DNA from: an uncultured archaeon
Lineage (GTDB): Archaea > Hadarchaeota > Hadarchaeia > Hadarchaeales > WYZ-LMO6
DNA: 64,000 nucleotides
Assembly (NCBI GenBank): GCA_938074535.1
Contig: CALJER010000005.1
Location: 1-64,000 of the forward strand
Direction: 5' to 3'
Shown: piece after piece, positions 2,508-5,733 of the stretch
How positions within the stretch are numbered: position 1 is the stretch's first letter
Layout: every line of letters starts with the position of its first letter
Made by a program: the position numbers and the translations under genes
Notes under the pieces: model-generated
Seen by the model: the letters and a program-made list of their open reading frames with translations, nothing else
Database searches by the model: none
What the model was told of the DNA's origin: nothing

Positions 2508-2640
2508 GTAACTAATTTCTCTTTCATATATATATCCCTCTGTTCTTTACCTGAGTTTACCTTCCTTCGTTTAATATATAAATTTAGCAATTATATGTAT
2601 TATATGGAAAAAGTATTTATTTTAATCCCTGCTATAAGGA
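2508..2640. promoter_or_regulatory. AT-rich divergent promoter region with several TATATA-like elements
   Basis: catatatatat, ttaatatataaa and ttatatgtattatatg sit in an otherwise very GC-rich background. Confidence 0.55.
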
Positions 2641-2644
2641 AAAG

Positions 2645-2809
2645 ATGCTAAAAATAATAAAGGTGGAAAAACGCTTCGGGAGGCTCAGGTTGGTGGTGTG
2701 CCTCCCAAATCCGGGGGCACGAGGGGATGCCCAACGGCGGAAGCAAAGTCCCCCCCAAAGGATCCCTGAAGCCCCTTCTACCTTCCCGGAAATTCTTGGG
2801 AGGTCCTGA
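2645..2809 (+). pseudogene. Possible decayed N-terminus of an ABC-transporter ATPase
   Basis: Starts MLKIIKVEKRFGRL; a shifted frame gives GMPNGGSK, a degenerate Walker A. Ends in the hairpin ggaggtcc-tga-ggacctcc followed by tttt. Confidence 0.35.
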
Positions 2810-2922
2810 GGACCTCCTTTTATGTTTTTAATATTGGGTATATATCTTTTGAAATTTGTTATGAAATCTATCCCAAAAGTATATAAACCTGCGGAAAGTA
2901 TGTATAAACGGAGGTGAGAAAA

Positions 2923-4617
2923 ATGAAAACCCTGGAGTTGGAACCTCTGGACAAGAGGTGGACGGTGCTGATGGTGGAGAAGGAGTACGACGAACCCCTC
3001 TGGGAGCTGGACGAGGTTCTGTTCCCCCGTCTCCCCAAAGCCCTCGAAGTGATCCGGACCCCCTCCGTGGCCTTCAGGGAGTTCCTCTGGGAGCTCCTGA
3101 CCAGGGAGAGACCGGACTTCGTCACCGACGAGAAGGGAAGGAGAAGCGACAGGGAGTTCTACGAGGAAAACCCGGTGGCCCTGATATGCAAGGAGAAGGG
3201 GATACCCCTCTACCCCGCCGATGTGGACGAGAACGCCAGGTACCACCTGGAGGGAAAGGCGAACGAGCTCAGGGGAAAAAGGGACGAGATCCTGAGGGTG
3301 CTTGCCCGCAAAAGAAGGGGCGAGAAGCTCTCCCCCCAGCAGCTCGAGTACCTGAAGGCCTACGCCCAGTACCTGCACCAGGAGCTGGAGGAAGAGGTGA
3401 GGAAGGCGGAGTTCGAGGTCAGGGAAGCCTGGATCACCATGGGGATCCTGGAGAGGGCCAGGAAAGCGGGCAAAGAAGGGGTTCTGGTGGTCCACCTGAG
3501 CAGCCCCAGGCACGTGGAAGGTGTGGCGAGGCTTCTCAGGTCGATGGGGGCGAACCTCACCCACGTGAAGCTGGAGAAGAGGGCCCTCCCCAACCTGAGA
3601 ATGAATTTTCCCCCCACCAGGCTGGGGAGGGACCTCCAGCTGCCCGGCTTCGAGGTCGTGCCCACGGTGAGGGCCGTTGGGAAGGAGGAGCTGCCCTCCC
3701 TCCTTTTTTTTCTCGACACCGAGCCACACGCGAGCCCCTTCGACATCTCGCTGGCCTATGACGTGGGCTTCGACGCGGTCATCCCCTACGCGGGGGTGAA
3801 GCCCGAGGATGCCAGGAACATCGTCCAGGATGCCCTCTTCTCCAGGGGGCCGAAAGGAGTGAAGTACTCCACCTTCCTCATAGGCGGGAGGTCCCTGGAG
3901 GAGGCCGAGGAGATCCTGAGGGTGGTGAGGGAGAACATGTTCCACCCCTTCGAGACCTCGGTGGTAATAGACCCGCACGGTGCCTACACCACCTCCGCGG
4001 CCCTCGTGGCCAAGGTGGAGGAAGGGACCAGGAAGCTGGGGATGGCGGGAGAAGGCCTGAAGGCGGTGGTGCTCGCTGGGACGGGGCCGGTGGGGATGGC
4101 TTCGGCCGCCCTCCTGGGCAGGCTGGGCTTTCGGGTGTACCTCACTTCCAGGAAGGAGGAGAGGGCCAGGAGGAGCGCCCAGGTAATCCTGGAGAGATGG
4201 GGCGTCAGGGTGGAGGGCGCACAGGTGGACGACCAGGAAAAAACCTTCGAAATACTCAGGGATGCCTCCGTGGTGGTGGCGAGCGGGGCCCCCGGAGTGG
4301 AGCTGATCTCCGGGCAGACCCTGGAGAGGCTGGAGGGAGGCTACAGGATCATGGCCGACATCAACGCCGTCCCGCCCGGCGGGATCGCCGGACTGAAGCC
4401 CGACTGCGACCTCGTGGAGTTCCGCCCCGGGATCTTCGGGATAGGGGCGCTGGCGGTGGGCAGGCTCAAGAACAGGGTCGAGAAGGAAATCCTCACCAGG
4501 GCCAGGACGACCGGAAAGGGGGTGTACGACCTGGACTGCGCCTTCAGGACCGCCAGGGAGCTCCTCGCTGAAAGGGGGAGGGAGATAAAGCTGGCCCCGC
4601 TGCAGATCACCTACTGA
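2923..4617 (+). CDS. NAD(P)-dependent methylene-H4MPT/H4F dehydrogenase (MtdA/MtdB family) with a ~255-aa N-terminal TraB/TIKI-like domain
   Basis: C-terminal half has SPFDISLAYDVGFD, VQDALFSRGPKG, DPHGAYTTSAA, AGTGPVG and DINAVPPGGIAG. SD ggaggtga at 2910-2917 supports ATG 2923. Confidence 0.85.
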   Translation: MKTLELEPLDKRWTVLMVEKEYDEPLWELDEVLFPRLPKALEVIRTPSVAFREFLWELLTRERPDFVTDEKGRRSDREFYEENPVALICKEKGIPLYPADVDENARYHLEGKANELRGKRDEILRVLARKRRGEKLSPQQLEYLKAYAQYLHQELEEEVRKAEFEVREAWITMGILERARKAGKEGVLVVHLSSPRHVEGVARLLRSMGANLTHVKLEKRALPNLRMNFPPTRLGRDLQLPGFEVVPTVRAVGKEELPSLLFFLDTEPHASPFDISLAYDVGFDAVIPYAGVKPEDARNIVQDALFSRGPKGVKYSTFLIGGRSLEEAEEILRVVRENMFHPFETSVVIDPHGAYTTSAALVAKVEEGTRKLGMAGEGLKAVVLAGTGPVGMASAALLGRLGFRVYLTSRKEERARRSAQVILERWGVRVEGAQVDDQEKTFEILRDASVVVASGAPGVELISGQTLERLEGGYRIMADINAVPPGGIAGLKPDCDLVEFRPGIFGIGALAVGRLKNRVEKEILTRARTTGKGVYDLDCAFRTARELLAERGREIKLAPLQITY

Positions 4618-4651
4618 ATCCCTTTTATTCCCCGGGAGGAAGGAGGGAAGG

Positions 4652-4939
4652 ATGGGAGCCGACCCCAGCTGGCTCGTCCCGCTCATCGCCCCCTTCCTGA
4701 TAGGACTGGTGGTGGGAGCCATGATCAAGGCGGCCGCGAAGTTCGTCCTCCTCCTGCTGGTGCTGGTGGCCATCCTGGCCGTGACCGGACTCATCGCCTT
4801 TTCCGTCGAGGACCTGCTGGGAAGGGCCATGGACTACCTGCCCAACCTCCTGAGGACGGGGAGCGCCGCCAAGGACGTCCTCCCCTACACCTCCCTCAGC
4901 TTCATCCTGGGCCTGCTGCTGGGGCTCTGGAAGCTCTAG
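4652..4939 (+). CDS. Small membrane protein (3 predicted TM segments)
   Basis: Hydrophobic 95-aa ORF with a GGAGG SD and typical codon usage. Confidence 0.7.
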   Translation: MGADPSWLVPLIAPFLIGLVVGAMIKAAAKFVLLLLVLVAILAVTGLIAFSVEDLLGRAMDYLPNLLRTGSAAKDVLPYTSLSFILGLLLGLWKL

Positions 4940-4944
4940 GGACC

Positions 4945-5733
4945 TTGAGGATCCGCCCCGTCTTGGGCTTCCCCGCGCTCTCCCTCTCCGCGGAGAACGA
5001 GCGGGTGCTGGTGGTGGCCGACCTCCACCTGGGGATGGAGGGGGAGCTGGCGGAGCGCGGCATTTCCCTCCCCAGCCAGATCCCCTCCGCGCGCAGGAGG
5101 CTGGAGGAGGTGGTGGGAAGGGAGGAGCCCGACAGGCTGATCTTCCTGGGGGACGTGAAGCACAGCGTTCCCGCCAGCACCTGGAGGGAGTGGGCCGAGC
5201 TCCCTCCCTTCTTCGAGGCCCTGCTGAGGAGGGTGAAGAGGGTGGAGGTGGTGAAGGGGAACCACGACGGCGACATAGAGGGGATGGTCCCGCGCGGGGT
5301 GAGGGTCCACGGCGCGGGAGGGATAAGGATAGGGGAGGCGGGACTGCTGCACGGGCACACCTGGCCCTCAGGGGAGCTCTGGAGGGCGGAGGTGCTGGTG
5401 TGCGCCCACAGCCACCCCGCGGTGGAGTTCAGGGACCCGCTGGGGGGAAGGGTGGTGGCACCCGTCTGGCTCAGGGGAAGGCTGGACACCTCCCTCCTCC
5501 CCCCAGAAAGGAGGAAGGGGGCGGAGGGGCACAGGAGGGTGATCGTGCTGCCGGCCTTCGGCGAGCTGGTGGGAGGATACGCCGTCAACGGGCCCTCCTC
5601 CGAGGAGCTCCTGGGACCCCTCTTCCGCTGCGGGGCCGCGAGGATGGAGGAGATGGAGGCCTTCCTGCTGGACGGGACCTACCTGGGGAGGGTGGGAGAG
5701 CTGCCGGGGAAGCCTAATTACTCGGGAGGGTAG
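4945..5733 (+). CDS. Calcineurin-like metallophosphoesterase (COG1407-like)
   Basis: DLHLG, LGDVKH, GNHD, HGH and HSHP motifs. Confidence 0.85.
   Translation: MRIRPVLGFPALSLSAENERVLVVADLHLGMEGELAERGISLPSQIPSARRRLEEVVGREEPDRLIFLGDVKHSVPASTWREWAELPPFFEALLRRVKRVEVVKGNHDGDIEGMVPRGVRVHGAGGIRIGEAGLLHGHTWPSGELWRAEVLVCAHSHPAVEFRDPLGGRVVAPVWLRGRLDTSLLPPERRKGAEGHRRVIVLPAFGELVGGYAVNGPSSEELLGPLFRCGAARMEEMEAFLLDGTYLGRVGELPGKPNYSGG

Follow-up and report, generated by a model that had tools for sequence, protein, structure and literature searches.

An archaeal MtdA-type methylene-tetrahydromethanopterin dehydrogenase joined to a probable, highly divergent TraB/TIKI-like domain

The carbon metabolism of Bathyarchaeia, Asgard archaea and Hadarchaeales, abundant lineages of the subsurface that are for the most part uncultured, is inferred from genes alone, and the tetrahydromethanopterin (H4MPT) branch of their Wood-Ljungdahl pathway is usually drawn with methanogen enzymes and F420. 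Methanogens have a Hmd-Mtd cycle, which combines two methylene-H4MPT dehydrogenases that differ in their redox partners, and FolD is a bifunctional methylene-tetrahydrofolate dehydrogenase/cyclohydrolase. We describe here a gene of an uncultured member of the Hadarchaeales, located in positions 1 to 64,000 of contig CALJER010000005.1 (GenBank assembly GCA_938074535.1; this whole stretch of 64,000 nucleotides (nt) is referred to as the window), whose product joins an NAD(P)-dependent dehydrogenase of the MtdA type to a second domain that we consider a probable, very divergent relative of TraB and TIKI proteins. The kind of enzyme represented by the C-terminal domain is known; its N-terminal partner has no Pfam family, and we found no description of it in print.

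The superfamily with which we compare the N-terminal domain has been outlined in PMC6254334, in the accessible parts of which the TIKI site is described as a 2His/2Glu catalytic motif with a conserved basic residue (Arg), and PMT (2EBF), HopBA1 (5T09), Bcr135 and ChaN (2G5G) are listed as TIKI-superfamily folds. In RRSP, the essential pair consists of the late His and a Glu, according to the same parts of that paper.

The gene is a single plus-strand open reading frame (ORF) at 2914/2923-4617 of the window, and translation from the ATG at 2923 gives a product of 564 amino acids (aa). Its main parts are the following.

2923..4617, plus strand: the whole fusion gene, encoding the 564-aa two-domain protein and the TGA stop; full-length homologs have 548-618 aa.
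2923..3702, plus strand: the N domain (aa 1-260), a probable divergent TraB/TIKI-like alpha/beta domain, with a predicted folded core at about aa 11-225 (nt 2953-3597) and a helical hairpin at aa 103-181.
3703..4614, plus strand: the C domain (aa 261-564), an MtdA-type NAD(P)-dependent methylene-H4MPT dehydrogenase as judged from its matches to Pfam and to solved MtdA structures.
3736-3975, plus strand: the Mpt_N domain (Pfam PF09176; aa 272-351).
4078-4095, plus strand: the Rossmann motif GTGPVG (aa 386-391), followed by TSRK at aa 408-411.

The Mpt_N match scored 90.7 bits against a gathering cut-off of 27, and the family profile matched the solved MtdA structures 6tlk, 6tge and 1lu9 with E values of 2e-59 to 7.5e-59, covering chain residues 4-292. 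The family of the F420-dependent Mtd (PF01993) was not among the Pfam matches of the window protein. The C-terminal half had been taken for an MtdA/MtdB-type enzyme in an earlier reading of the DNA that used the sequence alone (hereafter, the sequence-only reading), and the 90.7-bit Mpt_N match and the MtdA profile matches at E values of about 1e-59 bear this out. The C module is very probably a Rossmann dehydrogenase that interconverts methylene- and methenyl-H4MPT with NAD(P)(H). The single-domain architecture of MtdA/MtdB (about 290-300 aa) was not found; the protein has 564 aa, including a 260-aa N-terminal domain, and the database name 'NAD(P)-dependent methylenetetrahydromethanopterin dehydrogenase' covers one half of it.

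That the two halves form one protein was also part of the sequence-only reading, and neither homologs restricted to unfused forms nor a stop codon between the halves was encountered. A word-indexed search with 8000 scored candidates returned 522 proteins at E<=1e-3, and the best 120 of the 522 are all 548-618 aa long, cover 95-100% of the query and are labelled in their source records as belonging to Hadarchaeales or Bathyarchaeia. A scan with one genome per species found N-domain relatives encoded in 168 genomes; wherever 80 loci are mentioned below, these are the best 80 loci from the 168 genomes. About 71 of them belong to Bathyarchaeia/Bathyarchaeota, three to Hadarchaeales/Hadesarchaea, one to the Thermoproteota 'Kor3', four to Promethearchaeota/Thorarchaeota and one to an unclassified archaeon. 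Both halves lie within one ORF (436-638 aa) in 78 of the 80 loci, three of the 78 being shortened by a contig end, and the ORFs of the remaining two hit the contig end before the dehydrogenase half starts. One could still envision that assembly or gene calling had joined two separate genes, given that the source genome is a metagenome-type assembly in 53 contigs and that split forms occur in Asgard archaea. However, the 78 one-ORF loci come from independent assemblies, three close Hadarchaeales relatives have frames of 569-591 aa, and a Logan contig matches window positions 2600-4700 with 0 differences and 0 gaps, although it probably derives from the same sample and is, hence, not independent. 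Among the sequencing runs listed, the stretch is contained in a single DNA run, which may be that of the source sample, and in no RNA run. The chance that the fusion is such an artefact is negligible, and a chimera of two genes was rejected on the strength of the one-ORF loci.

The N family is small. An exhaustive HMMER search of 1.84 billion representatives found 50 proteins at E<=1e-3, 30 at E<=1e-10 and nine at E<=1e-30, and Mpt_N was carried by 7 of the 23 among these 50 that were scanned with Pfam. Scans of the window protein turned up no Pfam or NCBIfam model for the family. One of the seven Mpt_N carriers, a protein of 496 aa (P0141, one cluster), has the reversed order, with an MtdA-like part at aa 1-301 and an N-like part at aa 317-486; the latter lacks the E-K-E stretch described below and has a GG-x-S-H motif closer to the VGxxH of TraB. 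The sequence-only reading knew of no description of the fusion, and we likewise found none in full-text searches on the fusion or on archaeal MtdA/MtdB, subscription papers and supplementary tables aside; the accessible parts of PMC9012536, PMC11237513, PMC11291895, PMC12533140 and PMC8498797 make no mention of the fusion or of the N and N' genes, N' being the His-less paralog of N introduced below.

The N module and the dehydrogenase keep company even where they are not fused. In a sample of 201 Asgard genomes, 55 have a member of the N family and 61 have the MtdA-like half; the two occur together in 54, N alone in one and the dehydrogenase alone in seven (Fisher p 6e-40, a value that is overstated in that related genomes are not independent). 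Six of ten Asgard regions have three adjacent genes, encoding N' (205-209 aa), N (241-243 aa) and the MtdA-like protein (328-337 aa), and the other four have N' followed by a fused N-Mtd gene (557-560 aa); N'-N-fused arrays were also seen. The N module is, thus, almost always a fixed partner of the dehydrogenase, fused to it N-to-C, once C-to-N, or split from it in an adjacent gene. From this fused, reversed and split-adjacent occurrence, we infer that the N domain is likely to dock on the dehydrogenase. Complex prediction for the split Asgard Mtd and N proteins gave a score of 0.45, as compared with 0.00 for the best control, with runs agreeing on at least 73% of the contacts and a partner predicted local distance difference test (pLDDT) value of at least 79. 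The 0.45 mark was attained in 116 of 157 solved complexes and in 2 of 215 mismatched pairs, counts that hold only roughly for our custom alignments; scores of 0.60 or less were seen for only 18 of the 157 solved complexes, plus both mismatches that passed. With the fusion as a strong prior, the prediction may be taken as mild extra support for docking.

The N' gene deserves a remark of its own. In the Asgard loci L142-L151 (for example, L144:6503-8911 and L142:7314-13146), N or the fused gene is in every case preceded by the His-less N' (205-222 aa), and tandem arrays in which N' and N accompany two fused copies are present in some Asgard genomes. This arrangement suggests that N' and N may act as a pair.

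What the N domain is had to be approached by remote comparison. For aa 1-260, there was no Pfam family at E<=1, no NCBIfam family and no PDB sequence match, and a Pfam search at E<=10 with 17 N-family members gave no TraB, ChaN or Ere family and only scattered single chance-level rows. The assignment of the N-terminal half to TraB in the sequence-only reading does not, therefore, extend to membership of the Pfam TraB family (PF01963), which the window protein does not match at E<=1. An AlphaFold2 model of the domain, built on a 44-row alignment (pLDDT 84.8; predicted template modelling score 0.81), is built of four core strands, the third and fourth of which are separated by a long helical hairpin, with an additional C-terminal beta-hairpin (aa 211-250); its parallel beta-sheet core flanked by helices resembles ChaN, Ere, HopBA1 and PMT. 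The structural neighbours of the model (VIA scores, aligned residues in brackets) are CbiL 2qbu, 8.8 (122); ChaN 2g5g, 8.8 (149); the PMT C-region 2ebf, 8.4 (146); 8bqs_DQ, a subunit of the Tetrahymena respiratory supercomplex, 7.9 (153); HopBA1 5t09, 7.8 (138); EreC 6xcq, 7.5 (164); and the succinoglycan biosynthesis protein 2qgm, 7.1 (154).

For a comparison with genuine TraB proteins, we used 17 Bathyarchaeial members of PF01963, a family present in 28 of 121 Bathyarchaeia genomes (22 of them over the cut-off). One of the 17 was folded (pLDDT 80.2), and its neighbours were searched in the same way. Its top ten were 8bqs_DQ (13.5), ChaN (9.7), HopBA1 (8.7), CbiL 8xj3 (8.3), 1v9a (7.8), 7twm (7.8), 2qbu (7.7), 7ltc (7.2), EreC (7.1) and 2qgm (7.0), and all ten recur within the top 23 of the N domain. 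Because CbiL-type matches recur with the genuine TraB control, the likeness to CbiL is a property of the TraB fold, and the N-domain model shares the structural neighbourhood of genuine TraB. When a diverse N-family alignment was compared by hhalign with the 17 archaeal TraB proteins, the probability was 47.6% and the E value 1.9e-4 over 152 columns, and E70, D100, R167 and H197 of the N domain were paired with the invariant E41, D108, R183 and H203 of TraB. These are the same motifs that the sequence-only reading had lined up with TraB. In global mode, hhalign gave nothing. The nearest clusters to the N domain in the ESM Atlas are unnamed archaeal hypothetical proteins (0.92-0.94), with TraB/GumN clusters at 0.77-0.81 (lead level 0.9).

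The N domain might instead be unrelated to TraB, as another three-layer alpha/beta domain, for example kin of the N-domain of CbiL-type tetrapyrrole methylases, whose motifs resemble those of TraB by convergence or chance. The lack of a Pfam TraB match, an hhalign probability of less than 50% and Atlas scores to TraB clusters below the lead threshold would fit this idea, but the CbiL alignments span only 100-122 residues as compared with 138-164 for ChaN, EreC, HopBA1, PMT and 2qgm, the four invariant residues pair in the correct order, and the GG-x-S-H motif of the N-like part of P0141 is nearer to the TraB VGxxH. We think that an unrelated fold is unlikely, and that the N domain is with good probability a very divergent member of the TraB/TIKI/erythromycin-esterase superfamily that falls outside PF01963 as defined. 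Genome scans found no PF01963 in the source genome or in five other fusion-bearing genomes. Most of the Bathyarchaeial TraB comparison proteins (loci L094-L111) have a Cys-rich insert after the second strand, and the window N domain is without it.

The residues of the putative site are distributed over five stretches.

2974..2988, plus strand: VEKEY (aa 18-22), closing strand 1; the TraB GTxH would correspond to E19-K20-E21, with Glu for His.
3106..3132, plus strand: ERPDFVTDE (aa 62-70); E70 is the hhalign counterpart of the invariant TraB E41.
3184..3222, plus strand: ICKEKGIPLYPAD (aa 88-100); D100 is the hhalign counterpart of the invariant TraB D108.
3421..3435, plus strand: REAWI (aa 167-171); R167 is the hhalign counterpart of the invariant TraB R183.
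3487..3537, plus strand: VVHLSSPRHVEGVARLL (aa 189-205); H197 is the hhalign counterpart of H203, the His of the TraB VGxxH.

The last four are the motifs quoted in the sequence-only reading, and they occur in the order given there. Across 44 sequences, the invariant residues include E19, K20, E21, T68, E70, D102, R167, E168, W170, H191, S194, P195 and H197. We then compared the site between 14 N domains (that of the window, six solo and two fused from Asgard archaea, and five fused from other archaea) and 13 N' paralogs. E19, E21, R167, E168, W170, H197 and G200 are kept in all 14 N domains, and E70 and D100 in 13 of the 14. In every one of the 13 N' paralogs, position 197 is Leu, Ile or Met, position 168 is Pro or Ser, and position 70 is Asp. 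Residues selected in N and relaxed in N' point to a working site, which may be ligand-binding or catalytic. As judged from strand order, for a stretch that lies outside the hhalign alignment, E19-x-E21 appears to occupy the place of the TraB G-T-x-H. The full 2His/2Glu motif of the active enzymes is absent, the first His being E21, and E19, E70, R167 and H197 are present. The N site, consisting of E19-x-E21, E70, D100, R167 and H197, would then be a 1His/3Glu+Arg version of the 2His/2Glu+Arg site of TIKI. The sequence-only reading had called the N-terminal half a degenerate TraB fold lacking the first His. A divergent TraB/TIKI fold is indeed most likely, as indicated by hhalign and the structural neighbours, and the first-motif His is indeed missing, but the term degenerate does not suit a site whose residues are kept in 13 or 14 of 14 N domains.

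The setting of the fusion gene in other genomes connects it to the H4MPT pathway. In 51 of the 80 loci, the fusion gene is immediately preceded, on the same strand, by the gene for the F420-dependent Mtd (PF01993), with gaps of 22-315 nt (median 108), and in two more the ORF calls overlap; the mtd gene is found somewhere in 56 of the 80. Other recurrent neighbours are genes for PhoU-AbrB (43 loci), M42 peptidase (28), an FrhB-like protein with Fer4 (27), Ftr (25), eRF1 (20) and ATP-grasp_3 (18). The sequence-only reading contrasted MtdA/B with the F420-dependent Mtd of methanogens; the fusion enzyme is no replacement for the latter, and its gene often lies just downstream of the mtd gene. The gene context, with its NAD(P)H-, F420-, ferredoxin- or H2-handling modules, suggests that the fusion protein is an accessory of the H4MPT one-carbon (C1) pathway.

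The source genome (1.2 Mb, 93.6% complete) has Mch (451 bits), Ftr, the F420-dependent Mtd, CdhC and FolD (193 bits); MetF and Fae were not found in it, and its only Mer-like match reached 137 bits against a cut-off of 348.7. Its F420-dependent Mtd is encoded away from the fusion gene.

C29:44246-45061: F420-dependent Mtd (PF01993) of the source genome.

Halves of fwdC sit at the ends of contigs C14 and C29, and the two contigs, therefore, probably abut, which would bring mtd(F420), ftr, fwdC, mch and cdhC together in a single cluster; C15:1922-2848 and C8:74069-74554 are further positions belonging to this observation. Among 16 Hadarchaeales genomes, N occurs in five, all of which have Mch and the F420-dependent Mtd, and in none of the seven without Mch; Mch is present in 9 of the 16, the F420-dependent Mtd in 8 and FolD in 15. 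Canonical Mer (over the cut-off) is present in 20 of the 55 Asgard genomes that carry N and in 33 of the 146 that do not (Fisher p 0.07). A substitution of N-Mtd for Mer was rejected on account of these 20 genomes, and a substitution of N for Mch or FolD is disfavoured, both being present in the source genome and Mch in all five N-bearing Hadarchaeales genomes.

These data bear directly on the proposal of a new cyclohydrolase or formyl-pterin hydrolase activity in the N domain, which would make the protein a FolD-like bifunctional dehydrogenase/hydrolase for H4MPT. The domain is fused to an enzyme that makes methenyl-H4MPT, and the joining of both steps has a precedent in FolD. Moreover, a His-Glu pair, which in TIKI and Ere enzymes activates water for attack on carbonyl carbons (PMC6254334, accessible parts), is retained as H197 and E70. 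On the other hand, a hydrolase role is needless because the source genome has both Mch and FolD at the bit scores given above, all five N-bearing Hadarchaeales genomes also have Mch, and the site to which the role would be ascribed is non-canonical. The missing hydrolase step that the sequence-only reading had envisaged has no gap to fill, given that Mch, the F420-dependent Mtd, Ftr, an FwdC fragment, CdhC and FolD are all encoded in the source genome. We regard this proposal as chemically sensible but improbable.

A more probable alternative regards the N domain as a non-catalytic pseudoenzyme, that is, a scaffold, oligomerisation or regulatory module that holds a complex together or senses a ligand. 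The absence of the first-motif His and of a missing pathway step agrees with this. So does the example of PMT, in which, according to the accessible parts of PMC6254334, the TIKI fold persists although the catalytic motif is gone and the RRSP-type endopeptidase activity that was tested is absent; the fold thus has inactive members. The N' paralogs have lost H197 in 13 of 13 cases and are nevertheless retained beside N, suggesting a structural pairing, and redox modules are conserved nearby (NuoEF-like in the window; HdrA-MvhD, Mvh and Nfn-like in the Asgard loci). In contrast, across four archaeal lineages, five polar residues of the TIKI site are each retained in 13 or 14 of the 14 N domains and are relaxed in N', which fits a working site better than mere scaffolding, although a ligand-sensing site would look alike, so that the residue pattern is not decisive. 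We would put the probability of a pseudoenzyme, a reading that includes the regulatory domain envisaged in the sequence-only reading, somewhat short of even.

On balance, we favour, with some reservation, the view that the protein is a two-module archaeal enzyme of the H4MPT C1 branch, composed of a dehydrogenase and a TraB/TIKI-like partner. The C module would interconvert methylene- and methenyl-H4MPT with NAD(P)(H), and the N module would dock on it. The conserved site of the N module may serve to bind the C1 substrate on its pterin or to perform chemistry on it, such as the water activation of TIKI and Ere enzymes; this is the weakest step of the explanation, and we hold it tentatively. 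Alternatively, the N module might serve as a non-catalytic accessory subunit. As part of the H4MPT C1 (Wood-Ljungdahl methyl) branch, the protein would act alongside the F420-dependent Mtd rather than replace it, and would add an NAD(P) link to the branch. The operon structure raises the possibility, to which we give somewhat less than an even chance, that the two dehydrogenases together pass hydride between NADP(H) and F420 via the H4MPT-bound C1 unit.

Several observations weigh against the two-module view or its parts. None of the 17 N-family members matches PF01963 even at E<=10, a Foldseek search of the N model against the PDB gave no match at E<=0.001, and a narrower N profile reached only P 0.004 and a probability of 8% in hhalign. 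Active TIKI and Ere enzymes have a first-motif His that the domain lacks, which speaks against canonical hydrolase chemistry, and no reaction is obviously missing in the source genome, where Mch and FolD are both present. The cofactor and pterin specificity of the C domain is assigned by homology. Of the 80 loci, 24, including those of the window and of Asgard archaea, are without the F420-mtd gene within the flanks examined; 7 of the 61 Asgard genomes with MtdA-like genes have no detectable N; and the predicted complex is a weak pass.

Some Asgard loci have further genes of redox modules. The operon is divergent from genes for an HdrA-MvhD fusion (843-848 aa) and for the MvhG and MvhA subunits of a [NiFe]-hydrogenase (L144:1575-6169 and L142:2217-6807, both minus strand), and, in one of these loci, it is followed by an NfnA-like gene and a gene for a 928-aa FrhB-NfnB-like fusion (L144:8993-12665, plus strand), possibly a module that links F420, NADP and ferredoxin. 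A bolder interpretation, which we consider rather unlikely, is that N and the His-less N' are subunits of an unrecognised H4MPT-linked system in non-methanogenic archaea (Bathyarchaeia, Asgard archaea, Hadarchaeales and Korarchaeia), in which a TIKI-type site, ordinarily one that activates water, has come to act on the pterin-bound C1 unit within a composite active site shared with the NADP-dependent dehydrogenase, and that the Asgard complex is wired to HdrA-MvhD/Mvh hydrogenase and FrhB-Nfn-like modules. The target in such a system might be an amidine or a formamide, or the site might open the methylene ring. If this were true, the Asgard wiring would be a new electron-input route into the methyl branch of the archaeal Wood-Ljungdahl pathway.

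The question touched by these findings is how, in non-methanogenic cells, the H4MPT branch is linked to NAD(P)H, ferredoxin or H2. The fusion family would supply the branch with a dehydrogenase that uses NAD(P) and whose gene frequently shares an operon with that of the F420-linked enzyme. A catalytic N partner would mean that the textbook pathway includes an activity so far overlooked, and a structural one would point to a complex that merits isolation.

The DNA around the fusion gene has the following features.

2876..2917, plus strand: a likely promoter and ribosome-binding region, with the TATA-like AAAGTATATAAA at 2876-2887 and GGAGGTGA at 2910-2917, conserved in three Hadarchaeales records.
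4652-4939 and 4945-5733, plus strand: two ORFs at the 3' flank of the fusion gene.

The ATG at 2923 is the likely start codon because GGAGGTGA precedes it and the spacer is conserved in two other Hadarchaeales records. The spacer between phoU and the fusion gene (2508-2922) is AT-rich with a GC-rich island of about 110-170 nt (approximately 2662-2830). The island and blocks of the AT-rich flanks are conserved in the two other records, with a mean column identity of 74%. An Rfam scan of the spacer gave only chance-level rows, and the RNAalifold consensus fold is weak, with only three sequences and two compensatory pairs; the island could be a small RNA or a regulatory leader. The upstream genes are those named in the sequence-only reading, namely, one for a protein with PhoU and AbrB/MazE domains (1479-2507), a NuoE-like gene (459-845) and the start of a NuoF-like gene (1-606), all on the minus strand. 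The PhoU-AbrB/MazE gene adjoins the fusion gene here and in 43 of the 80 related loci despite rearranged order, being divergent from it in the window and convergent in Bathyarchaeia; its product may regulate the fusion locus. Directly 3' of the fusion gene lie an ORF for a hydrophobic 95-aa protein without a family and then one for a calcineurin-like metallophosphoesterase (PF00149, E 2e-8).

Compared with the MtdA/MtdB enzymes of methylotrophic bacteria, the window protein aligns with almost the whole enzyme over its C-terminal 300 aa and shares the Mpt_N domain and the GxGxxG motif. Unlike the bacterial enzymes, which are single-domain proteins of about 290-300 aa, the archaeal one is fused to, or in Asgard archaea encoded beside, a partner of 230-260 aa, and it occurs in genomes that also carry the F420-dependent Mtd; its preference for cofactor and pterin is predicted from homology. 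The resemblance to the Hmd-Mtd cycle lies in two dehydrogenases for the same pterin couple standing side by side, with the F420- and NAD(P)-dependent genes adjacent in 51 of the 80 loci, whereas the partner here would be NAD(P) and not H2, and a cycle is suggested by gene order only. FolD provides the precedent for pterin-C1 dehydrogenation and a hydrolytic step in one polypeptide, but it uses a single Rossmann-type active site for the two reactions and lacks a TraB-like domain, and the source genome has a separate FolD gene.

With TraB/PrgY/GumN and TIKI/Ere/ChaN proteins, the N domain shares the succession of strands and helices, including a helical insert that separates strand 3 from strand 4. 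The hhalign comparison also aligns a Glu that follows strand 2, an Asp that follows strand 3, an Arg of the helix leading into strand 4 and a His that follows strand 4. It differs from them in the absence of a match at the level of hidden Markov models, in the Glu that replaces the first-motif His and in the extra C-terminal beta-hairpin (aa 211-250); in addition, it is almost always tied to a dehydrogenase, and no substrate of a protease or esterase is apparent. The TIKI-family endopeptidase RRSP, from the MARTX toxin of Vibrio vulnificus, has E-x-[H/E] in strand 1, a Glu in strand 2, an Arg and a late His in the same order as the N domain, and its essential His/Glu pair is retained there as H197 and E70. 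RRSP has a His where the N domain has E21, however, and it is a protease with a membrane-localisation lobe, so that the likeness between the two is one of site pattern only.

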